From positions 83,697 through 147,696 of the forward strand of contig CAAGAD010000005.1 of NCBI GenBank assembly GCA_900767715.1: a DNA stretch of 64,000 nt, in the 5' to 3' direction. Below the pieces are notes generated by a model. The model made no database searches, was not told where the DNA came from, and saw nothing but the letters and a program-made list of their open reading frames with translations. The translations under genes and the position numbers were made by a program. Positions 3 through 64,000 of the stretch are shown here, in pieces. Numbering within the stretch: position 1 is the first letter of the stretch; the number at the start of each line of letters is the position of its first letter. This stretch comes from Clostridia bacterium. Its GTDB lineage: Bacteria > Bacillota > Clostridia > Christensenellales > UBA1242.

Positions 3-3000
3 GGCGGTTCTAGCGGTATCAAGTCGGTGAACGTTTCGACATCGGCTGACGGCAGAGTATTCACCCCTGCTGGCACAATCACTCCAACGAGTGAAAGATA
101 TTTATTCGCAGTAGATAATAGTTATGCCGGAAATTATGTGAAATTCACAATCAGTTTCAACATTCCTGCTGACGATATTGAATATGTGGTATATGTCAAC
201 GACAACCTTCTGGTTGAAGAAAAAAATATACCATTTATTCACAACGGCACTCTCACAGCGTATTGTGGCGAGAGTTACAATATTGTTGATTACATTACAC
301 TAAAACATTTCGACGAAGGCGAATACACCAACTATGTGGCAAGTAACGCAACTGAAATTGAACTAACGGATTACATTATTAAAGAGTATCCAACATTTGA
401 CATTTCAACTGAATTTGTATGCGACTGGGCTTGGGTAGATAGCACTCTCAATGTCAGTTATAATGATAAAACAGTGCTTAAAATTGACGTTGTTAACCCA
501 TATAGCATTGTTGAACAGAATGCAGACTACACGCTAAAAGCATTGACGGCGGTTAGACTTGGCGACTTCATCACCGGCGCAGAAATCAAACTGCTCAAAA
601 AGGCAGTAGCATTCGACGCAACCGCGACATACTACAACGCACAAGGTCGCAAAATTGTCGATCCAGTGCCAGCCAATATTGAAGATTACTTCACGTTGGT
701 TGACGGCGGAAACTATGGCATTGAGTTCAAGACAAGTGATGTTTTGAGCAGTACAGACATAAGCGTCGGCACACTCAATGATGAAACATACATCTACATC
801 GGCAAGCAGACAGTTGCCGGCACACTGACCTTTATCGTCGCATTCAACGACAGCGAGGTGGTGCGTCAACAAGCCGACGTGATAGTGAACGTCGAGCCAA
901 ATCTTCCAGACAATTTCATCAAGGCAAATAGAGTAGGCACAAGTGGCAACACAATTGATTTGCGCGACTTTATCAATACTGAATACGGATACGACCGATT
1001 TGAATGGAATGATGTATTGGGCGAACCAGTCAAGGCAGTGGGCAACATAACCCTTGCACAAGAACCTTTCAGTTCAAACGACGTGGCACTTTTGAGTGAA
1101 GACAACAACAAATTTATCGCACCAGAGCCAACCGACCCACGTGGCGACTTGACGCTCACATTCACCGTGAATACCGATTTTGGTTATAGCAAAGACTTCA
1201 CTGTGACGATTCAGTCAGCCACTCAGTTGATTGCAACATATCCAACACACAGCACACGCGAAATCCAAATCGACAACCAACTCGTTACCGTTATGTACGA
1301 GCAAGTGGTCGCTGGTCAAACAGTCAATATGTTTGGCGTTGACGCTGACAACAAGGTTACACGTGTCAAGGCAATGAAAAACGGTACGGAAATCACCACA
1401 CCTTTGGAAATCAAGTATAGTTATCAAGCCGGTCGCGACACGACAGACGTGACAAGTTATATCACAATCAACAATGGCTCAATCACATTCAATGCTGGCG
1501 CTAGCGCACTCTTTGCTCTAACAATTAGCGAACCAGTAAGCCATCGTGAATTGTTGTACTATTTCTATCTAGCACCTAGCGTAAACAAGACATTTACACC
1601 AACTTACAACGGCACCAACACGCAAAACGTTTTGGTTGACAAAGACCACACAACGCTTGACATTGCCAGCCTTTTCGCGTTGACAATCGACGGTGTGGAA
1701 GCCAACAAAACCAATTTGCAGTACGAGATTTGCTATTCGACCAACACACAAACTGCGATAACGGACAGCACACTTACTTTCACAGAATCGAATGTGGAAA
1801 ACGACTACATCGTCGTTATATATGACAATATCTATATATATGGCTATTATAATATACATACCATTCCTAATGTGACAGCGCAGAACACGGTTATCAACTG
1901 GACGCCTGAAACTATCGGGGCGCAACTAGCCAACTTGCCAGAGTTTACCTACAATGGCGGAGTTATGACAATCGCGGAAATCAATGTTGACACCGCTTTG
2001 AGCACATACATTGACATCACCAATGACGCTAGTCGCACAATCACGCTCAAACAGTTCGTTCCAACCACTGTGGCGGGCGTGCTCACATACAAACTCGTGA
2101 TGATGTCGGGAGAAAGTGAAATCGGCATTTACGAGCACAATGTGGCACTCACAATTAATGCAAGACAATATTTCGCCGATAAATACAACGCTGGCACAAA
2201 AGCGCTAGAAGTGACGGCGGGAGACCAATTCAGTCTAACCAATGCGGAATACAACTTGGCTGGGCTCACAGTTGCCGATAATGGCTTGCATTATACCATT
2301 AAGGAAATTAACGGCGTGGCATACAATGGTCAGGATATGGGCGTTTATTACACCGAAGAGAACTTGACTTTCACTTTTAACCCAGTTGCCGACAATGTAA
2401 CATTACATTTCGTCATTGACACCGATTTCGGCTACAAACAAGACTTGTACATCAAGTTGATGGCAGACATCAAATCTGCTATTTACAAGGCAAAGGACGA
2501 AAACGGTCACGAACTGGGCACAGTGTCTAATCCATTGACGATTAACGACCAGTTCACAGAAGCGGAAACACCTTTGTTCGTGTTTAACCGCGCGATTGAC
2601 CTAGCAAACTATTTGTCAATTACATCACGCAAAGATAATGGCGAACTATTGACAGCAGGCAACTTCCGTTTGACTGCAACCATATTGTCCGATTGGGCAA
2701 TAGATAACAACATTTCTGTTGCAGATATCTATTCGTTGGACGGCACAACATTGACATTCGTGCCACTAGCAAGCGAATTAAGACTTGCATTCAAAGTCGA
2801 AATCAAGATGAGCGGGGACACTTACTTCGCTTCGGCGACAATGTTCTACATTACGCTATCTGCCAACTACAATGCGAATGTAAACTACGCATTCGTTGGC
2901 GATACCAGCGAGTTGATTGAGAATGGCAAACAAATTAATTTTAGCAATAGCAGTTTCATTGCAGTTAGAGATAATCTCACTGGCGTTGACAACTATAACG

Positions 3001-6000
3001 CTAAACGTATAAGTTTCTTCTACCCAGCAAACGCTAATAGTGAAATAACCGAATTTGATTACACCAATATTAGCGCTAGCGCTATTAACAAATTGACTGT
3101 CACAGTCGATAGCCAAACAAACACCGACATCACCGCACACATCGACGACAATGGTATAACATTTGACAATGCTACAACTAGCACAATCGGTTCGGTGACA
3201 TTGAGATTCAAGAACCAAGTGGGCATTGATTTGACAATGACATTCAAGATTTACCCAACCAACACACTCGACGCCATTAGTTCAATCAAATACAATGGCA
3301 AAGAGCCAAGTGCAACCAATGACCACGAACTTATCTTGAATAAGAATTTGAACATAAGCAAGGACTACACTATCACGACATTTGGTGATAGTTCGAGCCG
3401 TGTATTGTTTAGATACCCAGCCAACGAAAAGGGCGAGTTCATCGAATCGTTGAAGGCCAAGAGCACAGTTGTCTATGACGAAACAGGCGCTGTACAAGAC
3501 TGCTTCGACGTTCAAATCGATGAAACACTTATCAATATAAAGTTGAAACAAGACAGCGCAGGCAACTGGATTTATCCAGCACCTAAATTGTACACAATCC
3601 ACTTCTTGTCACGTGCCGGTTATTTGGGCAGTTACAAGTTCACATTCAGTCAGGACGTAAACTTCGATAATACTGGTTACAATGTTAGCGAAGGCGAGAA
3701 AATTTACGGCTCACAATCGGGCGTACAGTTGTTGGATAGAGTTGGTATAACACTTTATGAATACACTGCTGACGGTTATGAGTCTAGCCAAATTGATTTG
3801 GTTGACAAGATTTTGACTTCGGCAACCAACGAATACAATGGCTACTCATTGCAATTTGAATCGAACTCACGATACATCACCATTGGCAAGAATGACAACG
3901 GCACGCGTGACGACATTCTCTCATTCACGCAAGTGAGTGCAGACACCAATGCCAGCGTGACAGTCAAAGTTCTCTACAACGGCGTTGTAATTGCCAGTCA
4001 CGACTACAATTTCATCATTCAAGAACACCTAATTGTTTCACTCGGCTATTATAATGATACGACGACAGTTCGCTCAATCGACATCTATATGCGCGATTTC
4101 TACAAAGACAATTTCTACGATGAAACTCTGCCAGATAAGATTGAATACGATTTGACGAATTCATTGAACCCAACAGACGAATTGTTCTTCACACTACGCA
4201 ACGTTTTGCAAGGGAAGTATGGTGACCCTGCAGACTTGAAATTCACAATAGACACCAATGCTTCGACTAGTGGCATCAACAATTTCGTTGAACTAAATAA
4301 CTACAAACTCGTTTTCAAAAAAGACGTGACGGAAGACACACTTTTGGTATTGAACGTAGGCTATCAAGGTGGCACTAGCCGAAAGACATTTAGCATTACT
4401 ATCAAACCAAGCATTGCCGTTAGCCGATATACTGACGGCGGTAGCGGTCAATACATCTATGGCGTAGATAATAGTGGAGTAGATATCTATTCGTTAGACG
4501 ATTTGGTAATTGCCAACACCAACTCACCAAGTAATACATCGCAAGCAGAGATGCCAAAGATTGAAATGAACGACATCAAGACCAATGGCGTTGCTCCTTT
4601 GGCATTGTACACAGTGTCTAAGATGAAAGGTAACACTCCATACACACCACTCGCTGAGGATACAGACGGCTCAGTTAGAGTAGTGTCAATGGAATATGCA
4701 ATGTTTGCTAACGAAGAAGCGTTGAACAACACTTCAACAGGTTACAGACGCGCATCATATACGAAATTGTCTGTTGATTATGCAAGCACCGCGACTATCA
4801 GCGGAAAAAAAAGGCACAACAACTTTAAATTCACCGTGCCTAATGTAAATGCAAATAAGATAATGTCCGTTAAAGTTAAAGTTCGTCTTTTGGGCGGAAA
4901 TTACTACGAGTATTACTACTTCATTAAAGTAAACCCTGCACTAACTCTCGGTGAAAGTAAGAAATATACAGAATTCACGCAGATTTCATTGGCTAAATTG
5001 AAAGCAGATAACGCTGTTGTTGAAACAAAAGCAAATAATAAATACACATTATTCACAGCGAACGGCAAAGATACAAATGCTGCTGGCGATGATGGCGCAC
5101 TATTCTATTGGACGCCTATGCAAAATGAGTTTGGATTCGACAAGTTTAAGAACAACGTAGTCTTCGTCATCACCAATGTTGACAACGGAATAAACAATAA
5201 TGTCGCATTCAGCATTGATAAAGAGAGTGATATCACGCTTTCAATCACATCAAGTGAAGATGGCGGAATGCTCTTCAACAACGCATTGAAGTTTAGACTC
5301 TATGTGTTGGCACTTGATAGCAAAAACCTATTTGAATTCGGTGCAGACCAAATCGTCAAGACTTACACGGGCGCAATTAATAGCGATACACTTGCTTTGC
5401 TAGAAAACAATATGATTTTCGCACAAGATGTTGAGATAAAACCTAAAAAGGAACTTGGCATTTACACAACAGTGTGGGGCGAAATATCTCAGATTCACGC
5501 CATTAGTGACCTTGGATTGCCAATCGACTTGGGCTACACAGACAAGAGATGTCTAATGGACTATGTGTCTGTTGGCAGTGACACCAGTCGCGCAATCGAA
5601 CTAGTAAACGGAAACTTCAAGGGCAACTTGGTAAGCGATTACAAAGGCATAATGAATGGCTTTGACTTCACTGCCGACTATGGCTGGAAGATTTGCGTTG
5701 AAGATGTGACCATAAGTTACTCAAACTTTAAACTCACACGCACATTCAACTATATCGTATCTAACAGTGCTACATTCGTGAAGATTAACTATGCAACATT
5801 TAACGACCGTATCAAGATGACTCCAGAAATCAATGACGGCGTGTACGGCGAAAACAGTCGCGACCTTGCAAGGTCTATTAGCCTTGTGACAGTTGAGACA
5901 AGGTATATTCCTACTGAACCTGACAAGAAGATGAACGACCTTACAGAAACTAACAACGGTCTAACGATTTCCACATCGCTCGGTTCGTCCAAGTTGGGCA

Positions 6001-6398
6001 ATGATACACTTGCCGACAACAGAGTCCAAATCTTCACCAAAGATACCAAATGGTTTACAAAGGTTGATAACAACTATGTTGAATACGCGGGCAAAGTCTT
6101 TGAGTCTGGCGTAACGTATTACTATTACGACGAATACACGGTAACTTATCGCGCATTTGATTTGAATAAGTACACGTTATACGCAGAAGGCACAACCGCA
6201 GACACGGCTGGCCCTGGAATGAACTTGTACATTGATTTGAGCGAATGTTTGGACGGCAACATCTTTACACTCCCATACGAAGCGTGGAAGAGTGAATCGA
6301 TGATTCTCACATTCAATGTTGACGTCACTTACGACGGCACAACTTACAAGTCGCAGATTAGAATTCTAGAAATTACTGCCAAGCCTAATCTTGCATAA
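3..6398 (+). CDS. giant surface/secreted protein, 5'-truncated by window edge (>2,130 aa), unknown family
   Basis: Frame 3 is open from nt 3, with no stop upstream of the track's GTG at 27, to TAA at 6396-6398. Composition is N/T/Y/D-rich and beta-type. A TDFGY(S/K)(K/Q)D motif recurs at nt 1171-1200 and 2415-2447. A hairpin terminator follows. Confidence 0.8.
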   Translation, partial: GGSSGIKSVNVSTSADGRVFTPAGTITPTSERYLFAVDNSYAGNYVKFTISFNIPADDIEYVVYVNDNLLVEEKNIPFIHNGTLTAYCGESYNIVDYITLKHFDEGEYTNYVASNATEIELTDYIIKEYPTFDISTEFVCDWAWVDSTLNVSYNDKTVLKIDVVNPYSIVEQNADYTLKALTAVRLGDFITGAEIKLLKKAVAFDATATYYNAQGRKIVDPVPANIEDYFTLVDGGNYGIEFKTSDVLSSTDISVGTLNDETYIYIGKQTVAGTLTFIVAFNDSEVVRQQADVIVNVEPNLPDNFIKANRVGTSGNTIDLRDFINTEYGYDRFEWNDVLGEPVKAVGNITLAQEPFSSNDVALLSEDNNKFIAPEPTDPRGDLTLTFTVNTDFGYSKDFTVTIQSATQLIATYPTHSTREIQIDNQLVTVMYEQVVAGQTVNMFGVDADNKVTRVKAMKNGTEITTPLEIKYSYQAGRDTTDVTSYITINNGSITFNAGASALFALTISEPVSHRELLYYFYLAPSVNKTFTPTYNGTNTQNVLVDKDHTTLDIASLFALTIDGVEANKTNLQYEICYSTNTQTAITDSTLTFTESNVENDYIVVIYDNIYIYGYYNIHTIPNVTAQNTVINWTPETIGAQLANLPEFTYNGGVMTIAEINVDTALSTYIDITNDASRTITLKQFVPTTVAGVLTYKLVMMSGESEIGIYEHNVALTINARQYFADKYNAGTKALEVTAGDQFSLTNAEYNLAGLTVADNGLHYTIKEINGVAYNGQDMGVYYTEENLTFTFNPVADNVTLHFVIDTDFGYKQDLYIKLMADIKSAIYKAKDENGHELGTVSNPLTINDQFTEAETPLFVFNRAIDLANYLSITSRKDNGELLTAGNFRLTATILSDWAIDNNISVADIYSLDGTTLTFVPLASELRLAFKVEIKMSGDTYFASATMFYITLSANYNANVNYAFVGDTSELIENGKQINFSNSSFIAVRDNLTGVDNYNAKRISFFYPANANSEITEFDYTNISASAINKLTVTVDSQTNTDITAHIDDNGITFDNATTSTIGSVTLRFKNQVGIDLTMTFKIYPTNTLDAISSIKYNGKEPSATNDHELILNKNLNISKDYTITTFGDSSSRVLFRYPANEKGEFIESLKAKSTVVYDETGAVQDCFDVQIDETLINIKLKQDSAGNWIYPAPKLYTIHFLSRAGYLGSYKFTFSQDVNFDNTGYNVSEGEKIYGSQSGVQLLDRVGITLYEYTADGYESSQIDLVDKILTSATNEYNGYSLQFESNSRYITIGKNDNGTRDDILSFTQVSADTNASVTVKVLYNGVVIASHDYNFIIQEHLIVSLGYYNDTTTVRSIDIYMRDFYKDNFYDETLPDKIEYDLTNSLNPTDELFFTLRNVLQGKYGDPADLKFTIDTNASTSGINNFVELNNYKLVFKKDVTEDTLLVLNVGYQGGTSRKTFSITIKPSIAVSRYTDGGSGQYIYGVDNSGVDIYSLDDLVIANTNSPSNTSQAEMPKIEMNDIKTNGVAPLALYTVSKMKGNTPYTPLAEDTDGSVRVVSMEYAMFANEEALNNTSTGYRRASYTKLSVDYASTATISGKKRHNNFKFTVPNVNANKIMSVKVKVRLLGGNYYEYYYFIKVNPALTLGESKKYTEFTQISLAKLKADNAVVETKANNKYTLFTANGKDTNAAGDDGALFYWTPMQNEFGFDKFKNNVVFVITNVDNGINNNVAFSIDKESDITLSITSSEDGGMLFNNALKFRLYVLALDSKNLFEFGADQIVKTYTGAINSDTLALLENNMIFAQDVEIKPKKELGIYTTVWGEISQIHAISDLGLPIDLGYTDKRCLMDYVSVGSDTSRAIELVNGNFKGNLVSDYKGIMNGFDFTADYGWKICVEDVTISYSNFKLTRTFNYIVSNSATFVKINYATFNDRIKMTPEINDGVYGENSRDLARSISLVTVETRYIPTEPDKKMNDLTETNNGLTISTSLGSSKLGNDTLADNRVQIFTKDTKWFTKVDNNYVEYAGKVFESGVTYYYYDEYTVTYRAFDLNKYTLYAEGTTADTAGPGMNLYIDLSECLDGNIFTLPYEAWKSESMILTFNVDVTYDGTTYKSQIRILEITAKPNLA

Positions 6399-6481: not shown

Positions 6482-6503
6482 AAATCCAAAAGTGGAGGAA
6501 ACT

Positions 6504-9500
6504 ATGGCAATTAGTTCTAAATTTATTCAAGATTTGGCGCGAATCAACGGAGCCAAGGTTGATTTGAGTGATGCAAATGCTGTCAAAGATTGGTTTGATA
6601 ACTCTTCATACAAATATATGGCTGACGCCAGCGCGGACAATAGAAGTTTCGTGGAGCGCATTATCACTGCACTCTTGCTTTTGGGTGACGAAACAGACAA
6701 TGCGGTGGGCTTGACTATGGAAGAGCGCAACAGTGTTATGCGCATTGCTGACGACGCTTCATTAATTGGTAATGGCAGTTATTTGACTGAAATTTTGCGT
6801 CTATTTAGCAAGAAGGCTGGCGACAGAGATTTGGCTAGACCCGACGCTGAACTCAATATGGGCTTTGTTCAATCCCACCTTCACAATTATGGATTTGACG
6901 ACAGAGCCGTTGAAACTATTGTTAAGCGTGGCAACATTAGCGCCAAAGTTAAATTGGTGGACAGTGCGTCAAGAGTTATGCGTACCAACGCTAGCACCAA
7001 GACAATCATTGCCAAGACCAACGATATTGACGATGTAAAAGCAGAAGTAATCGACCTTGCCAAAGACGTTTACAAAAACAGTGGCGCTAGACCAGCATAT
7101 AGCATTAAAGGTATTCCAAACAGAATTTGGACAGACAGCGACGTGACTATCGTTGAAGACGCAGACGACAGAAAAGTGATTGCCAAGTCTAACGGTATCA
7201 AGTCTGCCGAAGAGAGAATTATGGCCGGTACTAGCCACCCATTGACAGGTGTTTTGAAGCACCTTGTTGACGGTCGTGCCAGAGCCGACGTTCAAACTCC
7301 TGACCAAATCATCGACGACATTCAAGCATATTTGTTGATGAATGACCGTTTAACCACAGTCAAGAAAGAAGACGAATGGAACGCCATTCGTAAGGAAATT
7401 GCCGTTGACGCTCGTTTGGCAGTAGATAAGGACGACAACGTTTCTCTCTACACACCTGCTCGTGGTGAAGAATTGAGCTCCAAGGACGACATCAAGAAAA
7501 TTGTTAACATCACCGAACTTGGTTCAGTAGGCATTGAAGCCGGCGCAAGTTTCGTAGGTTATGATATCTCCGACCCAGACGTTCGCGAGGCTTACGAATT
7601 GATGCAACAAGGTTTGCTCAGAGCCAACAACCGTAACGACAAACTCGCAATCAATTTGTTGAACGCACACAAATTGTATTCTAGCGCAGTTGGATTGCCA
7701 GTCAGCCCAAAGACTACCACAGCCAACATTTACGCTAATATGGTTGATGACCCAGAAGGCATTATTGGTAAGGACGGCTTGACCAGCGATATGCGCAATT
7801 TCTTCCGTAAAATCGCCAACAATCCTAACAGTCCATATTACCAAATCGAAATCGACAACGGCGTTGCAGAACAACGTAGCGACAAAAAGATGGGTCTGGA
7901 AATCAACTACATCTTCAAAAACAAAACCAAAAAATTGGTTAAGACCAAATTGCAATTCAGCACACGTTTCATCGGCTATGACGATGAAGGCAAGCCATCA
8001 CTCCTATTGAAGAGTGACGACGCAATCAAGTTCTCTGTAATTCAATCAATGGTTCTTGACTATGTAAGCAACTTTAAAGAAAAGGTAAACAACGTTGACT
8101 TCAAGATTGTCGGCGCTGAAAAAGACAAGGTTCGTGACCCTAATGAACGTGCTTTGATGGCTAACCTTGCTACACAATTCGTTATGATGGGTTACTCGTT
8201 CGGCGACAGCCCAGCACACAAGATTAACGAAGAACTTATCAGCACATATTTGATGGAAAACCAAGCCACCATTTTGGCAGGACTTGCGAAATCGGGCAAA
8301 GACTATGCGGTAGTATTGCCACGCGCATACAAATGGGCTATGAGAGTGGCAGAAATCGTTACTGACAGCCTTGGCATTGACAAGACTATGAAACGTGACT
8401 CTAAAACTGGCAGAATCACCGGCAAGAGCGAACTAGTTGCCAACTTTGAACGCCACGGCTTCACCTTCCCAAGAATGAACTCTAACGATCAACCTTTGTT
8501 CTTGTCCAACGAACAAAAAGCAAGACTTTCTGGCGCTGACTTGAAGAAATACAACGCTGAAGAAAAGCGTTTGCATGAACTAGGCATCACCTCACAAGAC
8601 AGTTTGGGTGCACTTTTGATATCTTGCATTGACACTCAACTTTCACCAAAAGAAATCACTTTTGAACCACAAAATCAAACTGTTAAGCAAGCCGACGAAA
8701 ACAAATTCGAAGACACTCGCGCTAGACTTGCCAACAAGCACGACGCATTGCCAGTCATTGACCCAAGCGTTATTCTTACTGATGATGACTTGACAGAAGA
8801 CACAGGTCTTGACGCAACAGATGTGGAAGAAATTGAAGAATCTCTTGAAGCAGGCAAGCCTAAGACTCCAACTCCAAAGTCAGTAGAGCCTAAGCCAGTT
8901 GAAACTGAAAAGAAAGAAGCCAGCGAAACTGCTCCAAAGACCAGTCCAGAAGACAAGAAAAAGCCTAGAAGCCTATTTGATATGATGACAGACCGTATCA
9001 AGAAGGGTATGGACAAAAAGGATAAGACAGTTCAACCTAAGGAAAAGACCGAAGTTGGCTATTTCTGGGACGAACACAAGGACGCTGGTCCAATGGAACG
9101 CCATTACGAAGAGCGTTCACTTGAAGAGATGAAGTCAGGTAACCTACCTGTAAGAACAAAGAGAACTTACGATGATGTTGAGTTCAGCGATAACACCACA
9201 TCAGCCGAAAATAGACCTGAAGTAATCTATTTGCCAGGCAAGGTAGAAGAAGTTTCAGCCGAAGAAATAACCGAAGAAGACAAAGATGCCGTAATCACCG
9301 GAAAACAAGCATTCAAAGACAGAATGAAGCAAGGTAAGTTGGAAGCACTTTTCAAAGAAAAAGATGAAAAGACACCTACCAAAGAAGCCATTTACGGTTA
9401 TATTGACGGCAAATTCTATTTCGCAATTAGACACATCAAAACTGGTAAGGTAACTGACAGATTTGAAACTGAATTGAGCAAAGCAACTAAGACTAAGATT

Positions 9501-9614
9501 GACAAAGCCCAAGGCGAAGAAAAAGATGCACTCATCGCTAAATACGCAGAGAAAGCAGCCAAGGCTTACAAACAATTTAAGAATGCTAAACGCGATACAA
9601 AAATCGAAAAATAA
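6504..9614 (+). CDS. hypothetical 1,036-aa protein with no signal peptide or TM segment: ~700-aa N-terminal region plus E/K/P-rich low-complexity C-terminal third
   Basis: ATG at 6504 sits 5 nt after GGAGG, so the track's GTG at 6492 lies on the RBS. I recognise no Walker or catalytic motif. PKTPTPKSVEPKPVETEKKE-type tracts begin at about nt 8860. Confidence 0.75.
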   Translation: MAISSKFIQDLARINGAKVDLSDANAVKDWFDNSSYKYMADASADNRSFVERIITALLLLGDETDNAVGLTMEERNSVMRIADDASLIGNGSYLTEILRLFSKKAGDRDLARPDAELNMGFVQSHLHNYGFDDRAVETIVKRGNISAKVKLVDSASRVMRTNASTKTIIAKTNDIDDVKAEVIDLAKDVYKNSGARPAYSIKGIPNRIWTDSDVTIVEDADDRKVIAKSNGIKSAEERIMAGTSHPLTGVLKHLVDGRARADVQTPDQIIDDIQAYLLMNDRLTTVKKEDEWNAIRKEIAVDARLAVDKDDNVSLYTPARGEELSSKDDIKKIVNITELGSVGIEAGASFVGYDISDPDVREAYELMQQGLLRANNRNDKLAINLLNAHKLYSSAVGLPVSPKTTTANIYANMVDDPEGIIGKDGLTSDMRNFFRKIANNPNSPYYQIEIDNGVAEQRSDKKMGLEINYIFKNKTKKLVKTKLQFSTRFIGYDDEGKPSLLLKSDDAIKFSVIQSMVLDYVSNFKEKVNNVDFKIVGAEKDKVRDPNERALMANLATQFVMMGYSFGDSPAHKINEELISTYLMENQATILAGLAKSGKDYAVVLPRAYKWAMRVAEIVTDSLGIDKTMKRDSKTGRITGKSELVANFERHGFTFPRMNSNDQPLFLSNEQKARLSGADLKKYNAEEKRLHELGITSQDSLGALLISCIDTQLSPKEITFEPQNQTVKQADENKFEDTRARLANKHDALPVIDPSVILTDDDLTEDTGLDATDVEEIEESLEAGKPKTPTPKSVEPKPVETEKKEASETAPKTSPEDKKKPRSLFDMMTDRIKKGMDKKDKTVQPKEKTEVGYFWDEHKDAGPMERHYEERSLEEMKSGNLPVRTKRTYDDVEFSDNTTSAENRPEVIYLPGKVEEVSAEEITEEDKDAVITGKQAFKDRMKQGKLEALFKEKDEKTPTKEAIYGYIDGKFYFAIRHIKTGKVTDRFETELSKATKTKIDKAQGEEKDALIAKYAEKAAKAYKQFKNAKRDTKIEK

Positions 9615-16911: not shown

Positions 16912-17011
16912 AAGACGCAAAATTTGTGTCTTTTTTTATTTTTATCGTCAAAATGCTTGCTAATTTTTAATATAATTGGTTAAAATAATAACGAAATGCA
17001 AGGAGGTGAAT

Positions 17012-19651
17012 ATGGAATATAATCACGAAAGAAGAAAATTGAGAATCGCGACCTGGATTGTCGTCGCACTACTCATTCTGTCTATCATTGGTGCTTCACT
17101 TTTGTTTGCGTTGAGCAACCGTACCAAGAATAAAACTAAACAGCCTAATGTCGTGAATGTGGGTGACAGTATCTCCAAAAACGGCACAAATAATGTCACC
17201 ATTCCCAACGCAAGCGTGTGGGACGGCACAAGTTCAACTAGTTGGTCTGGTAGCGGTACTGCGTCTAGTCCATATTTGATTAGTACTGCTAGTCAACTGG
17301 CAGGTCTTGCAACTAACGTTAATAATGGTAATACATACGCTGGAAAGTATTTTAAATTAACAAGCAATCTTGATATGGCTGGTGAAGGCTATGCGGATAG
17401 TACAGGCTATGCCTATCTAGACTATGAAACTTACAAGAACTATAAAGTGGGCTCCACTTTTACCGTAGGAAAATATACTTACAAGGTAATAAGTATTAAC
17501 CCACCATCTTCATCAGGTACAGAAATAGTTACGAAAGGACTATGCATTGCCGAGCCAGCGGGCACTTATTCTACCGGCGATATTTTGCAAAGCAGTGGCG
17601 ACGAGTCGGTTGAAGTAATGAGTTCCTACACGGGTAATATGGAAATGGCTGGCTATACCGGTTGGCGTCTAGGTGATTATACAACAATCACCGGTCAAGG
17701 CATTAGTTTCTCCGGCTATGCGCAAATGGTGCACGAGTCAGATTTCCAGAGTGGTGGCTATAATGAAACAGATTTTACTTATATTAATGATTCGTCAATG
17801 GAAGTCTATGATATAACGGTAAACTACTACTCCGGTTCAGATACAGACCCAGGCAGTGTGTATTGTAGTTATACCTATCAAAATGGTAAGGCATTCACTT
17901 CGATTGGTACAAGTTCTACTAAATATTTTGGTGGAAACTTTGACGGTGACGGTCATATAATTGGCAACTTGGCAACCAAGTATAATAGTTCAATATTCGG
18001 TTTGTTCGGCTACGTCAACTCAACAGGTGGCGCAGTAACGATCAAAAACTTAGTTTTAAATTATGACTATGCTGGTGGCAATTATAGTTATTCGTGCAAT
18101 ATATTTGGCGGATTGTGTTGCCAAATTAACACTACATCTTCATATGGCGTAACGATTGAAAATATTACAATCGACTTTGACAGTGGTAGTTATGCAAGTA
18201 CTTCATCTTCCACGAGATATTGTGGCGGACTTGTGGGCAAACACAATGGCGCCAACAATTTGGTTATTAGAGATTGTACGACTACAAAATTAAGTTGGCA
18301 ACATAATTCACCTTTGTATTTTGGTGGTATTATTGGTTACACAGTAGGCGCGACAATAGATAGATGTCAATCTAACTTAAAATCTAGAACAATCGGCAAA
18401 AATCCAACTTCCGACAATAAATATATCGGTGGAATAGTTGGTTATGCAAGTTTGGTAAAGATTAACGATTGCTACTTTAATGGTGAAATTGAAACTAAGT
18501 ATAATGAATCAAATGTAATCAAGGGCATTGGCGGTATTCTTGGCTATGGTTCAGCATATATAGCAAATTGCTTGTTCCAGGGTTCTATCCAATTTGGTGC
18601 GAAATCTGGGTTATCAGTTTACACCGTAAAAGTTGGTGGAATTTGTGGCTCCAACAACTGCTCGACCGCAGGCTATAAATCAATCGTGAACTGCATATCA
18701 AATGGCACAATTAAAAATACTTCTACATCGGTTCAAGCAAAATTTGCAGGCGGTGTAATCACGCCTTATGGCGCAACAGGTACAGGTGCGTTGAGTGAAC
18801 TCGTCGCTGTTTACAACACTAAGAATCATTCACCTAACAATGTGACAACCAGCAGTTCGTACGGCACAAATATTGATTCCAATTTGGCTACTAGTGATAC
18901 ACTTGTTAAATCGGCTTCAACATATGCATCTTGGACTGATTTTAGTTCTCACTGGTCGATAAATGAGAATATAAACAACGGTTATCCTATGCTAGCCGTG
19001 TTCACTCCTGAAGCACAAGTTACAGGCTTTGAAGGTAGTGGTAGTTCTGCAAGTCCTTATCTAATTAGCACTCAATCGGATATGATTGCTTTTGCAAACT
19101 ATTACAACAACAATCCAAAAACTGTATCGGGTGTTTATTGGAAACTCAATGCGAATATTGATATGACTAAGAACGCAAGCAATGTTCTCATTCACTTTGC
19201 GCCAGTGTGTTACAACGGCACATTTGACGGATATTTCGATGGCAATAGCAAGACAATTAGCGGGTTACTCATCGATAAGCAATATCAATACACTGGTTTG
19301 TTCGGCACGATTGCTAGTGGCAGTTATGTCAAGAACCTGACCGTAAACGGAACAATTTATTGGGATCAAACCTATGCGGTTGGCGGTGTGGCTGGTCGCG
19401 TGATGGCTGGTGGATATTTACAGAACTGCGTATTCAACGGCAACATCATTGGCGTACTCAACACCAAATCAAGCACGGAATGTCACGGCGTGGTAGGTAA
19501 GTATGAAATCGGCGGGGCGAATAATTGTTCTGCTACATACATAGAGTTGAAATACGCCAAGATTGGTGGCACAGCAACTGCGCCAACCTACACTTACTAT
19601 TTGTACGATTGGTCGCAAATCACTACCAGATTGTACAATAGTTTGGTTTAG
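17012..19651 (+). CDS. membrane-anchored surface protein with two GLUG-like repeat modules
   Basis: AAGGAGG RBS before ATG 17012, then an N-terminal TM anchor. The header SGSGTASSPYLISTASQLAGLA / GSGSSASPYLISTQSDMIAFA occurs twice. There are many G-G-[ILV]-x-G repeats (YCGGLVGKHNG, FGGIIGYTVG, IGGIVGYAS, IGGILGYGS, VGGICGS, VGGVAGRV). Confidence 0.8.
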   Translation: MEYNHERRKLRIATWIVVALLILSIIGASLLFALSNRTKNKTKQPNVVNVGDSISKNGTNNVTIPNASVWDGTSSTSWSGSGTASSPYLISTASQLAGLATNVNNGNTYAGKYFKLTSNLDMAGEGYADSTGYAYLDYETYKNYKVGSTFTVGKYTYKVISINPPSSSGTEIVTKGLCIAEPAGTYSTGDILQSSGDESVEVMSSYTGNMEMAGYTGWRLGDYTTITGQGISFSGYAQMVHESDFQSGGYNETDFTYINDSSMEVYDITVNYYSGSDTDPGSVYCSYTYQNGKAFTSIGTSSTKYFGGNFDGDGHIIGNLATKYNSSIFGLFGYVNSTGGAVTIKNLVLNYDYAGGNYSYSCNIFGGLCCQINTTSSYGVTIENITIDFDSGSYASTSSSTRYCGGLVGKHNGANNLVIRDCTTTKLSWQHNSPLYFGGIIGYTVGATIDRCQSNLKSRTIGKNPTSDNKYIGGIVGYASLVKINDCYFNGEIETKYNESNVIKGIGGILGYGSAYIANCLFQGSIQFGAKSGLSVYTVKVGGICGSNNCSTAGYKSIVNCISNGTIKNTSTSVQAKFAGGVITPYGATGTGALSELVAVYNTKNHSPNNVTTSSSYGTNIDSNLATSDTLVKSASTYASWTDFSSHWSINENINNGYPMLAVFTPEAQVTGFEGSGSSASPYLISTQSDMIAFANYYNNNPKTVSGVYWKLNANIDMTKNASNVLIHFAPVCYNGTFDGYFDGNSKTISGLLIDKQYQYTGLFGTIASGSYVKNLTVNGTIYWDQTYAVGGVAGRVMAGGYLQNCVFNGNIIGVLNTKSSTECHGVVGKYEIGGANNCSATYIELKYAKIGGTATAPTYTYYLYDWSQITTRLYNSLV

Positions 19652-58356: not shown

Positions 58357-59637
58357 ATGGCAAGACAAAACAAAACTACTGAAGTTACAATGCATTCACT
58401 TGATGTCACCGAAGGTAAGATGAAGTCTAAATACAATAGACCTAAGCGTTTTTTGGGCGCCTTGTTTAAAAAGATTTTGTTACCATCTCTCATTGTGGCG
58501 GGTGTTGCTGTGGGTGCTTTTGCCCTTATTCCAGCACTTTCCACTGCTGTCAGTCTAACTTTTGCCAACGCGGCACTCATTGGCGCGGGCACATTCGCAG
58601 CCACTAGCACACTTATTGGTGGTGGCACTATTATTCACGAAAAGGCGAGCGCACGCCGTCGCGTAAAGAAAGCCTTGCGCAAGAACCTTGAACTCGAAGC
58701 AATGGACTTTATCCAACCAAAGACAATTATGGTCAATGGCCGTGCACAATACGCCAACGGCATCAATCCACCACAAAGGGGTAAAGGCTTCTGGCGTCGT
58801 CGTAATATGCTTTACGAATTCTTGAAGCAAAACCGCCATTGCTGTGCCGAGAACGCTTGCTCGAATCACGCACTCGTTCAACGCATTGTTGATGGTCACG
58901 AAACCAGCAAATTCTTGGACTTGGTAGTTTTGGCAGCCAAACGCGGTTACCTTGGTGACAGATGCCGTGACGCAATCAAGGACAAAGAAAACAAACAAAA
59001 ACTCAAAAACTTGAAATATCTCAGCGAACCCGAAGCCGATCAACTTATGGAAGACGTTTTCGGCATTGAAAACCACTTCAAGACATTGGGCGTTAGCCAA
59101 GGCAGTCCGGTAGTCACTTCTTCACGCAAATCTAAAAAATCTGTTCAAAAAGATTATGAATACGATGATGAAGCCAGCCTTGACGCACTCCGTCAGCAAA
59201 TGACAGGAGCAAGTCAATCACAAGGCTTGACCCCAGAACAACTTACTGCTCTTGCAGGCTATGCACAAGCAATGAACGCTCAACCAGCACAACCAACAGC
59301 ACCGGTTGCTGAGCCAAACTCATACACTTCCCAAGCAGAAAAGAAAGATAGTTTGGTCAAAGCCGTTCTCACCAACCCAACGCCAGCGGTTACAGCAGAA
59401 CCAAAGGTTGAAGAAACTCACGGCGAGATTGAAGACAAATCTCTCATCAAGTCAATCGTCGATGAAGAGCCAAAGCCAGCACCAGCCGTAGCCGAGGTGG
59501 CAAAGACTGATGAAATCATCGACCAAAAGAAGAGTTTGCTAGACAGACTGGGCGCAACTCAACAACCAGTTCGTAAACCAGTTGAAGCAAAGAAACCACA
59601 AAAGCCACTTGTAACTCTAAGCGGTAAAGTATTATAA
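58357..59637 (+). CDS. hypothetical membrane protein with Cys cluster and disordered P/A/E/K tail
   Basis: RBS GGTAGGGG. TM region LLPSLIVAGVAVGAFALIPAL...GAGTFAATSTLIGGG. Cys cluster NRHCCAENACSNH. The C-terminal half is low complexity. Confidence 0.65.
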   Translation: MARQNKTTEVTMHSLDVTEGKMKSKYNRPKRFLGALFKKILLPSLIVAGVAVGAFALIPALSTAVSLTFANAALIGAGTFAATSTLIGGGTIIHEKASARRRVKKALRKNLELEAMDFIQPKTIMVNGRAQYANGINPPQRGKGFWRRRNMLYEFLKQNRHCCAENACSNHALVQRIVDGHETSKFLDLVVLAAKRGYLGDRCRDAIKDKENKQKLKNLKYLSEPEADQLMEDVFGIENHFKTLGVSQGSPVVTSSRKSKKSVQKDYEYDDEASLDALRQQMTGASQSQGLTPEQLTALAGYAQAMNAQPAQPTAPVAEPNSYTSQAEKKDSLVKAVLTNPTPAVTAEPKVEETHGEIEDKSLIKSIVDEEPKPAPAVAEVAKTDEIIDQKKSLLDRLGATQQPVRKPVEAKKPQKPLVTLSGKVL

Positions 59638-59713: not shown

Positions 59714-60493
59714 ATGAAAAATTATTTTACCATAGGTTCGTTAGAGATTTATTATTATGGTGTGCTTATGGCATCGGCAATGCTCATTGGCATTTTTTTG
59801 GCTTTTGGTATTAGCGAACGCAAAAACATCAAACGCGAATCAATCTTTGACCTTGCGCTCATCGTTCTGCCACTCGCCGTATTGGGCGCGCGCACATATT
59901 ATTGTATATTTAGCGATTATCACTACACATTTGCGGAGTTTTGGCAGATAAACAAAGGCGGTCTCGCCATTTATGGCGGTGTCATCGGCGGGTTTATAGG
60001 CGTTGTGATTTTCAGTCTTATCAAGAAAAAAGACATTCGCTCGGTGTGTGATGTCATCGCGCCGTCGCTCATACTTGGACAGGCAATTGGTCGTTGGGGC
60101 AACTTTATCAACCAAGAAGCCTATGGTTATGTCATTAACAACCCAAAATGGCAGTTTTTCCCAGTGGGTGTGGAAGTTGACGGCGTTTGGCATTTGGCAA
60201 CCTTTTTCTATGAGTCAATGTGGAACTTGGTTGTCTTTGCCGTCATCTTGACCATATTCTTCAAGACCAAGTCAAAGGGCACAACTACTGCTTGGTATCT
60301 CATCTTGTACGGGCTCGGGCGCACCGTCATTGAAGGACTCCGCACCGACAGCCTTTACATCGGTAGCACGGGCATACGCGTGTCGCAGGCGTTGAGCGTG
60401 GTGCTGATTTTGTGCGGAATTGGTATGCTTATCTACAATCTTGTCAAAAATAAGAAGACTAAGGTTGTAGAAAGTGATTCGAACAAAGTATAA
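59714..60493 (+). CDS. lgt: prolipoprotein diacylglyceryl transferase
   Basis: GLAIYGGVIGG, GRWGNFINQEAYG, multiple TM segments. Confidence 0.92.
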   Translation: MKNYFTIGSLEIYYYGVLMASAMLIGIFLAFGISERKNIKRESIFDLALIVLPLAVLGARTYYCIFSDYHYTFAEFWQINKGGLAIYGGVIGGFIGVVIFSLIKKKDIRSVCDVIAPSLILGQAIGRWGNFINQEAYGYVINNPKWQFFPVGVEVDGVWHLATFFYESMWNLVVFAVILTIFFKTKSKGTTTAWYLILYGLGRTVIEGLRTDSLYIGSTGIRVSQALSVVLILCGIGMLIYNLVKNKKTKVVESDSNKV

Positions 60494-60968
60494 TTTTTAT
60501 CTATGGTTTATCATTATATTTTACCTAAATTTTGCCATAAACTTGGCGGTCTATTTGATATGGCGACCTAGCGCTTTGCTCCGTTTTGACTATATTGTGT
60601 ACCAAATATTAGCCACGATTTCCGTCGTTCTCATAATGCGCGGGTTCGGGCTAAAAATCGATTCCAGCCTTTTGCTCGGCATATTCTACCTTGGCGTCGC
60701 GATTATAGGATTTATCAACATTTTCGCCGGCGTGCCGTACGGCTCGCTTTGGCCTTACTATTTTTTGGCGGGCGCTTTTGCCAATTTTGCCAATAGAGTT
60801 TTCTTTTTCGACAGACTGCAAGGTTTTTTTGCCATAATTTGTGTTTTAATTTTTATAATTTCTTTGTGTTTTGACTTGAAATTATTCGGTTGGTTGTGTT
60901 ATACTATACTCGTATTGATAACCATTTCCGCCAGCGTTATGTTCTTGGCATTGCGCACCAAGCGTTAG
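60474..60968 (+). CDS. integral membrane protein (164 aa)
   Basis: Hydrophobic ORF with a GTG start that overlaps the lgt 3' end. No family recognised. Confidence 0.5.
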   Translation: MIRTKYNFYLWFIIIFYLNFAINLAVYLIWRPSALLRFDYIVYQILATISVVLIMRGFGLKIDSSLLLGIFYLGVAIIGFINIFAGVPYGSLWPYYFLAGAFANFANRVFFFDRLQGFFAIICVLIFIISLCFDLKLFGWLCYTILVLITISASVMFLALRTKR

Positions 60969-60980
60969 AAGGAGTTTTTT

Positions 60981-61625
60981 GTGGAGAAGAGTAAACTTTA
61001 TACAGAAGAACAAGTGCAAAAACTGATTAACGAACGTTGTACCGCTCTGTCCAACAAATTGGACGAACAGCGCGCCACCATCGACCGCCAGTCAGCCACT
61101 ATTGCGCAGATTAGCAGTGAAATCAATGAGTACAAGTCCAAAGATTCCACCATTTCAATGGCAATCATCAGCGCCGTGGAAAAGGCTCAACAGATTGAAT
61201 CCACTAGCAAGAAACTCTACCAAATGGAGATTGAGCGCATACGCCTTTTGTATTTGAAGATGGAGAACGTCTTGAAACAACTCTATGCCAGATATCCCGA
61301 ACTGAGAAAGAATAGCGAAGTCAACGACATTATGGACAAGGTCGGCTTGGTGCTCAGCAACAACATTTCGCCAGTGAGCAGTCAGCCGTTGATGAAATAC
61401 GCAATGAGCAGTGCCACTGTCGAAGACCCTATCAAGAAATTGCTCAATAAAATCACCACAATTTTCGATAAAAACGACGACCAAAAAGTTACTCTCAAAC
61501 GCAAAACTATTCCTGAAAGTAGTAGCGGTTTTGACCTAAAAGAAGCCCTTAATCCTACCGAACAACTCAGCGATATTATGAAGGCTTTCAACATTGAACC
61601 TGCCAAAAAGAACGGACAAAAATAA
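60981..61625 (+). CDS. coiled-coil protein, possibly DivIVA/GpsB-like
   Basis: GTG start after AAGGAG. N-terminal YTEEQVQKLINE...LDEQRATIDRQSATIAQISSEINEYKSKDSTISMAIISAVEKAQ resembles the DivIVA layout, but similarity is weak. Confidence 0.4.
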   Translation: MEKSKLYTEEQVQKLINERCTALSNKLDEQRATIDRQSATIAQISSEINEYKSKDSTISMAIISAVEKAQQIESTSKKLYQMEIERIRLLYLKMENVLKQLYARYPELRKNSEVNDIMDKVGLVLSNNISPVSSQPLMKYAMSSATVEDPIKKLLNKITTIFDKNDDQKVTLKRKTIPESSSGFDLKEALNPTEQLSDIMKAFNIEPAKKNGQK

Positions 61626-61783: not shown

Positions 61784-64000
61784 ATGGTTAGTTTGAGAAA
61801 GAAAAAATTATCAAAAGTCTTGACGTTTTTTGCACTAAGTTTTTGCTTGGCACTTATTTCCGTCTTTACGCTTTTGCCTACCACAATGGCGTCTAGTTTC
61901 GACGTTTGGGACGGTACAACAGTGTCCGCCAGTCTGTCCGGCTCGGGTACGGAAGGCGACCCATATTTGATTCAGTCCGCCAGCGACCTGGCGTTTTTGC
62001 ACTCAAACGTACAGACTAATAAATACTATAAACTAACCGCGGATATAGATTGGAATAGTAAAACTTGGAACCCAGTTGCCGTTACATATTTTGACGGTGG
62101 CAACCATACTATTAAATCATTTAAACCAACCCTAATCAGCAATGGCTCAAATACTTATCGTTTTGGCATATTTAGTCAAGTTAAAGAATTATCCAATTTA
62201 AGAATTGAGTACCCAACAAGTTTTTCAGTTGATAGCAGTCAAAAAGCCAACCATTTGATAGCAGGCGCTGTGGCAGAAACAGTGGCAAATGCAATAATTG
62301 ATAATGTGCACGTCGTTGGCACTGGCGTAGCAGGCAGTGTTAGCAGTATTGATGTAATTGACAGCACTGTGACTAGCGGTAATATAAGTGCTAGTTATTG
62401 CTATGTAGGTGGAATCGTTGGTAAAACTGGCGCAAACGCAACAATCACCAATTCATCGACAAACTTAGAATTTTCGGTTACATCTAACATGCACGTTTAT
62501 GCGGGCGGTATCGCTGGCTACGCTACGAGCAACACTATTCAAAATTGCTACACCCGTGGCTCCATTCTTGCGTTTAATGCAAGTGCTTCAAGTGGTTACG
62601 GCATTTTCAATGTAGGTGGTATTACTGGCTTCAAATCTGGCACTGTAAAGAATGTATATACTACAATGGACATTTACGCTAACACTTCTCACACCGTGCA
62701 AGGTAATGAAATCTACAAAGATGAATACAAGACTTGCCAAGGTCACGAATACTATACTTGCTATGGTCACTGTCAAGGTCATCAAGTGACAGTAGGCTCG
62801 TGCCACGGTGGCGGGCATTACAAGTGTAATAGTTATACCACAGTAATTGATAAAGAGAACTCTTATGCGCTTTGTAATGATAAGACTACAACGTATTTCT
62901 ACCGTTGCCGAAATTGTAATTATAGGACTTCTGCCGTGGCTGGCGACCCTAGTTATACTGTTATAAATTCCCATAGGGTTGTCACAGAAGAAGGCGATAC
63001 TACAACGGAGATTTGCAATGGCAAAATGGCAGACCTATACAGTGAAGAGAAGTCCACACACGGCTCTGGTACAGTGGCGTATCTGGAAGGCAGGGGTTGT
63101 TCAAATTATAAAATTACATCCCAAGCCACAAAAACTGAAAAATGCTATGCAAACGAACAGGGATTTATAATGTGTGAGGACAATCTTGATGGTGCGTGGA
63201 GCGAATCGCATTTATGTCCGTATTGCGGTGGCACTGACTTGTTATATCAATATGGTCAAGATAGTTGTATTGATGAGAATTGTGCAGGATGGCAAACTAC
63301 CACAGAAACACAATATCATAGTGCTAGTGAATTGGATAAGTGCACAGATAAGTATGAGCACGCTGATGGTTATGAACAAGATGGCAACTCATTTACCGCT
63401 GTGAGAATTGATGGCTGTGACAATCAAGAGTATGTAAGTTATGGCAATTGTGGTGGATATCACTATTATTCTGAGCCAACTGGCACATATGAAACAATTA
63501 CTATTAAAACAGGCTATGTGAATGCAATTTCGGGGGTGAATGACGGCAGTGCATTCTTCTGTAAGGATAGCACGCTGACGGCAAGCAATACGCTTACTGC
63601 GCCTACCAATTGCGGACGCACACTCGCGCAACTCAAAGCTAGGTCAACCTATGACGGCTGGACAGATTTTGATAACTATTGGATTATAGACTCCACCTTG
63701 AATGACGGCTTGCCAGTGCAGAAATCTACCATTAGTTTGGGAGTGACAACCGCACCAGTGCTTGTCGATGAGAACAATAGCGAAATCACGGCAAAAGATG
63801 CTAATAGTTGGAACCAAGTCAAGACGACAGGCGACGGATATTATATGAGCCAAGACATCGGCTCGCCAACCAATGAAACGGTCACACTGGGTGCGACATA
63901 CGATGATGGTAAATACCAGTTCGTAGGTTGGGCAAGGCGAGATGGCTCGAATTACACTATCAAATCGAACAAAACACCATATTCGTTCGAGATGACGAAT
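61784..64000 (+). CDS. secreted GLUG-like repeat surface protein with Cys/His-rich insert, 3'-truncated by window edge
   Basis: Not in the ORF track because it runs off the window. I translated it by hand from ATG 61784 (GGAG RBS) and found no stop to nt 64000. Signal peptide KVLTFFALSFCLALISVF, header SGSGTEGDPYLIQSASDLAFL, and repeats YVGGIVGKTG / YAGGIAGYAT / VGGITGFKSG. Confidence 0.8.
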   Translation, partial: MVSLRKKKLSKVLTFFALSFCLALISVFTLLPTTMASSFDVWDGTTVSASLSGSGTEGDPYLIQSASDLAFLHSNVQTNKYYKLTADIDWNSKTWNPVAVTYFDGGNHTIKSFKPTLISNGSNTYRFGIFSQVKELSNLRIEYPTSFSVDSSQKANHLIAGAVAETVANAIIDNVHVVGTGVAGSVSSIDVIDSTVTSGNISASYCYVGGIVGKTGANATITNSSTNLEFSVTSNMHVYAGGIAGYATSNTIQNCYTRGSILAFNASASSGYGIFNVGGITGFKSGTVKNVYTTMDIYANTSHTVQGNEIYKDEYKTCQGHEYYTCYGHCQGHQVTVGSCHGGGHYKCNSYTTVIDKENSYALCNDKTTTYFYRCRNCNYRTSAVAGDPSYTVINSHRVVTEEGDTTTEICNGKMADLYSEEKSTHGSGTVAYLEGRGCSNYKITSQATKTEKCYANEQGFIMCEDNLDGAWSESHLCPYCGGTDLLYQYGQDSCIDENCAGWQTTTETQYHSASELDKCTDKYEHADGYEQDGNSFTAVRIDGCDNQEYVSYGNCGGYHYYSEPTGTYETITIKTGYVNAISGVNDGSAFFCKDSTLTASNTLTAPTNCGRTLAQLKARSTYDGWTDFDNYWIIDSTLNDGLPVQKSTISLGVTTAPVLVDENNSEITAKDANSWNQVKTTGDGYYMSQDIGSPTNETVTLGATYDDGKYQFVGWARRDGSNYTIKSNKTPYSFEMTN

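Follow-up and report, generated by a model that had tools for sequence, protein, structure and literature searches.

The 64,000-nucleotide stretch of the Clostridia contig CAAGAD010000005.1 analysed here (the window) ends within an open reading frame (ORF) that starts at position 61784 of the forward strand and encodes an exported protein with a region rich in cysteine and histidine. What holds such a region together, and what is it for? Our analysis points to a clade-restricted module of ~270 amino acids (aa) in the loop of the last GLUG rung, that is, in the distal head of an anchored protein of ~3,240 aa. Its 17 invariant Cys and eight to nine His would coordinate about six structural metal ions, most likely at tetrahedral zinc sites of the C2H2, C3H or C4 type, by which short beta-hairpins would be stapled together. 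Between the ligands the sequence is free to vary, and alleles are swapped between strains by recombination; the module as a whole would thus most likely be a variable, exposed knob of an adhesin-like protein, with a binding or antigenic role. We see an even chance that this mechanism, a zinc-stapled, variable and exposed binding knob, is right in its entirety; its zinc-staple part is likelier than its binding-function part.

Composition and conservation of the Cys/His-rich region

The region was singled out in an earlier note, made from the sequence alone, as ~295 residues with 21 cysteines at positions 62730–63615. The count holds for aa 316–611, where 21 Cys and 11 His are found in 296 aa; the coordinates mark the right region but are one base off the codon register, the in-frame span being 62729–63616. 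All six motif strings quoted in the note (TCQGHEYYTCYGHCQGH, GSCHGGGHYKC, YRCRNCNY, HLCPYCGG, SCIDENCAGW, and GNCGGYHYY) are present. Only 19 of the cysteines, however, belong to the module itself, whereas C593 and C610 lie outside, in the resumed scaffold: C593, in ‘AFFCKDS’, is the counterpart of the canonical ‘NCYY’ rung, and C610 is a strain-specific Tyr-to-Cys change, with Tyr retained in a 98.7%-identical strain (L083) and in the orthologs P0001 and P0002 from two other lineages.

In aa 316–575, Cys accounts for 7.3% of residues vs. 1.2% in the 25 other ORFs of the window (binomial P = 9e-10), and His, for 4.2% vs. 1.5% (P = 0.002). The paired, metal-site-like spacing that had been pointed out in the same note exists as well, yet it exceeds what composition alone would give only marginally, with six x2-spaced neighbouring ligand pairs against 2.6 in same-composition shuffles (P = 0.04), and ten x2–x4-spaced pairs against 7.0 (P = 0.13). 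The real signal is composition and conservation, not spacing. The content of Ile, Leu, Val, Met, Phe, and Trp is 13% in the module and 26% in the flanking beta-helix, and a hydrophobic content reduced by half fits a fold that is held by cross-links and not by a core.

Conservation was compared across three lineages, the window, P0001, and P0002. Among the 30 Cys and His of aa 316–575, 25 are invariant, as opposed to 45 of 230 other residues (odds ratio 20.6, P = 7e-12). Lack of cysteine conservation among orthologs, which had been named in advance as an argument against a genuine module, was not observed: 17 of the 19 Cys and 8–9 of the 11 His are invariant. The invariant skeleton consists of C318, H321, C326, H329, C330, H333, C340, H345, C348, C364, C375, and C378 in its first part, and C411, C439, C478, C481, C495, C500, H512, C520, H526, C545, C556, and H560 in the second one; H397 and H426 are conserved too, although in P0002 they fall a few alignment columns away. 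Further motifs without variation are HGxGT, GCxN (twice), CID..C.GW, T.YHS, IDGCDNQE, and YE..T..TGYV. Four pieces can be distinguished within the module, all on the forward strand:

62735..62827, N-terminal CxGH cluster, C318-x2-H321-x4-C326-x2-H329-C330-x2-H333-x6-C340-x4-H345-x2-C348 (five Cys and four His, all invariant in the alignments)
62825..63100, putative repeat A, aa 348–439, with C348, C364-x10-C375-x2-C378, H397, C411, H426, and ‘GC439SN’ (profile self-match by hhalign); a hot-spot of strain divergence
63098..63418, putative repeat B, aa 439–545, with C439, C464-x13-C478-x2-C481, C495-x4-C500, H512, C520, H526, and ‘GC545DN’ (hhalign self-match, in which six ligand positions pair with repeat A; they do not vary among the orthologs)
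63416..63514, C-terminal piece of the module, with IDGC545DNQE, C556, H560, and YE..T..TGYV (invariant columns)

The self-match is weak (E = 0.009) and pairs C348, C364, C375, C378, H426, and ‘GC439SN’ with C439, C464, C478, C481, H526, and ‘GC545DN’, respectively, which suggests an internal duplication of a ~95–105-aa unit, preceded by the unique CxGH cluster. Between lineages, identity amounts to ~40% in the core of the insert, ~48% in the N-terminal/GLUG part, and ~70% in the cap and early stalk.

Metal sites, disulfides, or a functional metal centre

Many extracellular Cys-rich modules of other organisms are disulfide-bonded, and the high Cys density (7.3%) in an exported protein might likewise reflect a disulfide-knotted domain, in which the cysteines would be paired as cystines after export and the histidines would be incidental; there is also a weak profile match to midkine, a disulfide-rich fold (E = 0.62, not significant). 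The pattern of conservation argues otherwise. The number of invariant Cys is odd (17), and the module totals are 19, about 21, 23, and 18 among the orthologs; both the number and the parity of Cys thus differ, which a fully disulfide-bonded design would not permit. The eight to nine His are conserved as strongly as the Cys, which favours metal sites. Besides, the host is an anaerobe, as pyruvate:ferredoxin oxidoreductase (PFOR) is encoded in the window, and it presumably lives in a reducing gut habitat, and the closest precedent, the immunoglobulin A (IgA) protease of Thomasclavelia ramosa, has 24 Cys and no disulfide in its experimental structures (PMC12237041). A disulfide-knotted domain thus seems distinctly unlikely.

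Given that 26 conserved ligands are found in ~260 aa (about one site per 40 aa), about six tetrahedral sites would be expected. Taken together, sequence and conservation lean towards about six structural Cys/His metal sites, probably of zinc, in preference to disulfides.

These candidate sites do not resemble a run of classical two-knuckle zinc ribbons, one of the possibilities raised in the earlier note. There are just two CxxC pairs (C375/C378 and C478/C481), and the scores of the protein are far below the cut-offs, 15.6 vs. 34.4 bits for Zn_ribbon_8 (Pfam) and 18.2 vs. 39.6 bits for the Lar-family ribbon. The likeness is confined to the CxxC knuckles that follow an aromatic-rich beta-strand (YFYRCRNC, HLCPYCGG), exactly where the weak sub-threshold matches fall. 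In contrast to a ribbon, the unit of the insert has one CxxC and a distant single Cys or His instead of two paired knuckles, and its context is extracellular.

The metal could also be functional and not structural, the module then serving in metal capture or sensing (Ni, Cu, Zn, Fe), as an Fe–S or other redox centre, or as a novel metalloenzyme site at the GHCQGH cluster. Five Cys and four His within 31 residues, all invariant, are indeed unusually dense, and the acidic invariant motif IDGCDNQE could bind metal or substrate. We nevertheless consider such a centre very unlikely. A regular-expression search over 738 aa found no CxxCH and no HExxH motif, so that the signatures of multi-heme cytochromes c and of metzincins are absent; no enzyme or metallochaperone family is matched; none of the three syntenic loci includes an adjacent gene for metal transport; and conserved ligands amid variable surroundings would be typical of structural sites. 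The module resembles neither an enzyme nor a redox centre.

Position of the module in a giant surface protein

The ORF is open to the end of the window (739 codons), the gene continuing past it. According to the earlier reading, its product is secreted, and a Sec-type signal peptide is indeed present at the N-terminus. The encoded part contains, on the forward strand:

61784..61891, Sec-type signal peptide, aa 1–36, MVSLRKKKLSK / hydrophobic core / TMA-SS (read from the sequence; kept in the orthologs P0001 and P0002)
61892..62695, scaffold, aa 37–304, with the N-terminal ‘VWDGT..GSGT..PYLI’ domain and three GLUG-like beta-helix rungs
62696..63514, Cys/His-rich module proper, aa ~305–577, with 19 Cys and 11 His
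63515..63721, resumed last beta-helix rung and cap motif, aa 578–646, GYVNAISG...AFFC593KDS...GRTLAQL...STYDGWTDFDNYWIIDSTLNDGLPVQ (compared with the paralog, P0012, P0014, and P0017)
63722..64000, start of the stalk, InlB-B/Flg_new-like ‘DGKYQFVGWARRDG’, where the gene exits the window

The same-species contig L083 (98.7% nucleotide (nt) identity) carries the ORF past 2,650 aa, and the full-length ortholog P0001, of 3,239 aa, has Flg_new_2 and YDG repeats, a C-terminal transmembrane helix, and then a basic tail. The protein is therefore ~3,240 aa long and consists of the signal peptide, a beta-helix head, a ~2,600-aa stalk of the InlB-B/Flg_new type, and a C-terminal membrane anchor. With a head at the N-terminus, a long stalk, and an anchor at the C-terminus, the head would be the part farthest from the cell.

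Three GLUG-like repeats had been noticed ahead of the cysteines, and they are found there as the GG[IV]xG rungs VGGIVG, AGGIAG, and VGGITG. The Pfam GLUG model remains below its gathering score on this protein (19.6 vs. 20.5 bits, two stretches). A word-indexed search with the 738-aa profile retrieved scaffold homologs only, 622 in number, with E-values down to 7e-33, several of them annotated as PF07581 or PF05342 (Peptidase_M26_N). By significant homology and by shared N-terminal and cap motifs, the scaffold belongs to the GLUG/Peptidase_M26_N-type beta-helix family: it has the same VWDG..GSGT..PYLI domain, GG[IV]xG rungs, and WDF..W..P cap, while none of the homologs examined has the Cys/His insert.

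Direct inspection of the canonical homologs P0012, P0014, and P0017 shows the last ‘..aGGI.G...i.NCYY’ rung, ~40–50 aa, and next the WDF..W...P cap. The rung-to-cap distance is ~40–60 aa in these homologs and also in a paralog encoded elsewhere in the window:

16976..19651, forward strand, paralog with the same scaffold and cap and no Cys/His insert (aligned at E = 4e-11)

In the 61784 protein this distance is ~340 aa, including ~270 extra residues, which follow the rung ‘VKNVYTTMDIYANTS’; the rung picks up at ‘GYVNAISGVNDGSAFFCKDS’, followed by ‘GRTLAQL..STYDGWTDFDNYW’. These alignments place the module in the last GLUG-rung loop of the beta-helix head.

The two proteins of the window share the N-terminal VWDGT..GSGT..PYLI domain, the GG[IV]xG rungs, and the STY..WTDF..W..I...N.G.P cap (RSTYDGWTDF... 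in the 61784 protein, ASTYASWTDF... in the paralog). The alignment of the 16976–19651 ORF thereby bears out the statement that the paralog contains the (S/T)Y..W.DF...W motif and lacks the insert. The paralog has a ~185-aa insert of its own at aa ~134–315, which is Cys-poor and rich in Tyr, Gly, and Thr, and lies in another loop, between ‘KYFKLTSNLD’ and ‘FGGNFDGDGHIIGNL’, motifs that are only 13 aa apart in the 61784 protein. Since the inserts occupy different loops, the scaffold seems to accept different modules at different positions.

Distribution of the module

When the insert was searched exhaustively with phmmer against 1.84 billion cluster representatives, four matches came up; the real relatives among them are P0001 and P0002, both syntenic orthologs. 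The other two, P0003 and P0004, are repetitive eukaryotic proteins whose scores sum weak repeat matches, and were discarded as spurious. Word-indexed homolog searches with the insert, as a single sequence or as a four-sequence alignment, gave no match; these negatives are weak, and phmmer is the reliable search, because P0001 and P0002, though present in the collection, were never returned by the index. The scan of the Genome Taxonomy Database (GTDB) genomes with the protein revealed no relative, and the scan of JGI metagenomes added L083 and a same-species mosaic fragment, L084, and no new lineage. The module therefore appears, by these searches, to be confined to three closely related lineages. 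This agrees with the initial suggestion of a lineage-specific module inserted into a family scaffold: ~270 aa intervene in comparison with the paralog and the canonical homologs, and among the 1.84 billion representatives only two further lineages carry them. Neither the insert nor the whole protein has a match above threshold in Pfam, NCBIfam, or the PDB, the latter searched both by sequence and by profile, so the region does not correspond to a well-known domain, the other outcome that would have spoken against a new module.

Relatives in kind among surface proteins of gut Bacillota

Of the ~119 GLUG homologs retrieved, 90 contain short Cys/His units with the pattern TC..G..CxxC..GH, which frequently come immediately behind the beta-helix. 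Arrays of such units (TC..G..CxxC..GH; H.YDNACDADCNVCG; W..D..HWH.C.CG) are seen in P0114, P0046, P0054, P0015, P0028, P0108, P0005, and ~80 further homologs, and no Pfam or NCBIfam model matches them. Residues 19–89 of P0114 match the ‘IgA protease’ sequence of PDB 9QA6 (E = 2e-13), that is, the M64 IgA protease of T. ramosa (UniProt Q9AES2), and hence the TC..G..CxxC..GH units are homologous to the predicted zinc-binding domains (ZBDs) of this enzyme. ZBD1 and ZBD2, equivalent to the C-terminal domains CTD2 and CTD4, have been described as putative zinc-binding, beta-sheet, core-less ‘metal-associated periscope domains’ with predicted C2H2 and C3H sites, one per ~35–43 aa (PMC12237041; PMC12415215).

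With units of this kind, homologous to extracellular domains of the T. ramosa protease, in 90 of ~119 homologs, the Cys/His-rich exported modules are common in the GLUG family of gut Clostridia, contrary to the initial impression that such a module would be unusual for an exported protein of an anaerobe. The published cysteine-exclusion rule was derived for aerobic Firmicutes (PMC2823432).

The insert shares several features with the T. ramosa domains. Both are extracellular parts of anchored surface proteins from anaerobic gut Bacillota; both are likely beta-only with nearly no hydrophobic core (13% Ile, Leu, Val, Met, Phe, and Trp in the insert, and beta-hairpins in a partial structural model); and in both the conserved ligands are Cys and His only, with a predicted site per 35–43 aa in the T. 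ramosa domains and per ~40 aa in the insert. At the same time, the insert lies in a loop of the beta-helix head, upstream of the ~2,600-aa stalk, and not between the anchor and the head; it has the unique CxGH-x4-CxGHCQGH cluster; and it is hypervariable between strains. Comparison of the insert profile with the 119 homologs, many of which have ZBD-type units, gave nothing below E = 0.3, the hidden Markov model of the units scored at most 4.6 bits on the inserts of the three orthologs (the best being ‘TTATCQETIYRYQCTNC’ of P0002), and 9QA6 was not matched by the insert profile in the PDB sequences. As far as these comparisons reach, the insert thus shows no demonstrable homology to the ZBD-type units. 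Sequence searches leave the module an orphan, and so, up to now, do comparisons of fold; in kind it resembles the recently proposed zinc-associated domains of gut Bacillota surface proteins.

Variation between strains and recombination

For P0001 and P0125, members of the same 90% cluster, 41 of the 91 amino acid differences fall in aa 300–599, which constitute 9% of the length. In this pair the nonsynonymous rate (dN) is 0.084 in the insert vs. 0.006–0.009 elsewhere, the synonymous rate (dS) is 0.093 vs. 0.02–0.045, and dN/dS is 0.9 vs. 0.14–0.44. A similar picture is seen for the window and L084, 97.7% identical overall at the nt level: the number of mismatches per 100 nt goes from 1–6 to 10, 16, and 42 between position 62700 and the contig break at 63033, where dS reaches 0.52 vs. 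0.08 and a 6-nt indel occurs, while all Cys and His are retained; for aa 361–417, dS is 0.77 and dN is 0.38. In the comparison with L083 the insert is nearly identical (dS 0.006) and the N-terminal part is divergent (dS 0.085). As the insert matches L083 while the flanks differ, and divergence from L084 jumps inside the insert, the alleles are mosaics, exchanged by recombination between strains. Frequent recombination in the head may also cause assembly breaks. The main differences from the window are located at 62200–62400 in L083, and at 62700–63033 in L084.

Between lineages, the identity is 25–41% in the head (aa 100–500), 58–82% in the stalk, and 90–97% in neighbouring genes (the window vs. 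its syntenic counterpart L001). With its identity far below that of the stalk and the neighbours, the head is the fast-evolving, presumably exposed end of the protein. Within the species, the insert is the most variable part of the head.

Hypermutation by a diversity-generating retroelement was considered and set aside, as the substitutions between the window and L084 hit all four bases (A, T, C, and G 21, 19, 16, and 12 times, respectively) and the 64-kb window contains no second copy or template repeat of the region; no genome-wide search for a reverse transcriptase was made.

A binding knob or a spacer

Being clade-restricted and sharply variable between strains, the module looks like an exposed binding or antigenic knob, and not like a standard domain. 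A competing view is that it is zinc-stapled, but purely architectural, a spacer or ‘periscope’ with no role in binding, its variability resulting from relaxed constraint and from hitch-hiking with recombination. CTD2 and CTD4 of the T. ramosa protease have been read as structural periscope domains (PMC12415215), and a spacer would agree with dN/dS of ~0.9, not above 1, with the elevated dS, and with the adjacent GLUG rungs being equally divergent between lineages. Yet the module is found in a loop of the head beta-helix and not in the stalk that links anchor and head, the protein already has stalk repeats of ~2,600 aa, and several strictly conserved non-ligand motifs (IDGCDNQE, TxYHS, GWxT, and HGxGT) suggest a functional surface. 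A mere spacer thus looks unlikely.

Several points weigh against the zinc-stapled binding knob. The close spacing of the ligands is only marginally above chance for the composition (P = 0.04 and 0.13). Recombination accounts for much of the strain divergence, as seen from the raised dS; dN/dS of 0.9 fits loops under relaxed constraint as well; and, because between lineages the GLUG rungs of the head have diverged to the same degree, the variability is not specific to the insert. Zinc binding by the T. ramosa domains is itself predicted, not measured (PMC12237041; PMC12415215). Structure prediction gave little help as well: the AlphaFold2 model of aa 290–650 has a predicted local distance difference test score (pLDDT) of 41.6 and is unusable, only three or four sequences being available, and for aa 338–462 pLDDT reaches 73.8 in one of five models only.

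In the latter model, the chain is folded into beta-hairpins throughout, with one short helix; in the longer one, confidence is very low at the N-terminal CxGH cluster. A Foldseek comparison of both models with the PDB produced no meaningful match (best E-values 0.27 and 0.6, TM-scores below 0.2), although the ZBD fold of T. ramosa is an AI prediction (PMC12237041), apparently unmodelled in 9QA6, which limits such a comparison. Recurrent matches to MCM and HypA, also with TM-scores below 0.2, were left uninterpreted. According to these models, the fold would be either new or poorly modelled so far.

Genomic context

The window, with 41% GC, encodes elongation factor G (EF-G), PolA, RNase R, PFOR, and Lgt, and is a chromosomal stretch of an anaerobic Bacillota; its EF-G is at most 70% identical to that of Clostridia metagenome-assembled genomes among the GTDB representatives scanned. 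The P0001 and P0002 loci are syntenic with the window, the shared order being Lgt, a 164-aa gene, a 214-aa gene, and the giant gene. The two genes directly preceding the latter in the window are:

60474..60968, forward strand, 164-aa multi-pass membrane protein with no Pfam match, upstream of the giant gene
60981..61625, forward strand, 214-aa coiled-coil protein (p214) with no Pfam match, directly upstream of the giant gene

Both genes adjoin the giant gene on its 5' side in all four loci for which the upstream region was recovered (the window, L001, L002, and L085). The conservation of p214 is 96–97%, and the same identity between the window and L001 is observed for MnmA and Lgt as well as for p214. 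At 58357–59637 on the forward strand, a 426-aa ORF with no Pfam match shares only 65% identity with the syntenic ORF of L001, against 90–97% for the genes around it, and is a further fast-evolving gene of the locus. Two long ORFs at the beginning of the window, 27–6398 and 6492–9614, both on the forward strand, encode proteins of 2,123 and 1,040 aa, respectively, with no Pfam match and with seven and one Cys; the shorter one is highly charged, Lys/Glu-rich, and of low complexity toward the C-terminus. In the insert region, no Rfam match, DNA repeat, or GC anomaly was found, and short ORFs overlapping the insert on the minus strand or in other frames were judged not to be credible genes.

Implications

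Most giant surface proteins of uncultured gut Clostridia lack annotation, and the widespread TC..G..CxxC..GH units in GLUG proteins are still without a curated family model. Cys/His modules stabilised by metal were proposed only in 2025 for an exported protein of an anaerobic member of the Bacillota, the T. ramosa IgA protease; if the module described here is zinc-stapled, their range would extend from a role in the stalk to an exposed, variable tip. This is a matter of degree and not a new principle, and the function is putative. A bolder and rather doubtful extension is that the module represents an undescribed bacterial variable recognition scaffold, a rigid frame of about six Cys/His metal staples that would display hypervariable loops at the far end of a giant adhesin, with alleles shuffled by homologous recombination between co-resident strains. 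If so, such a scaffold would allow ligand specificity to be altered, or IgA or phages to be evaded, and would be comparable in function to scaffolds with conserved Cys and variable loops elsewhere in biology. With a fixed skeleton of ligands, loops that diverge at a ~10-fold higher rate than the remaining protein, and alleles exchanged between strains, the module provides a target for strain-level studies of the interaction with the host, IgA, or phages.

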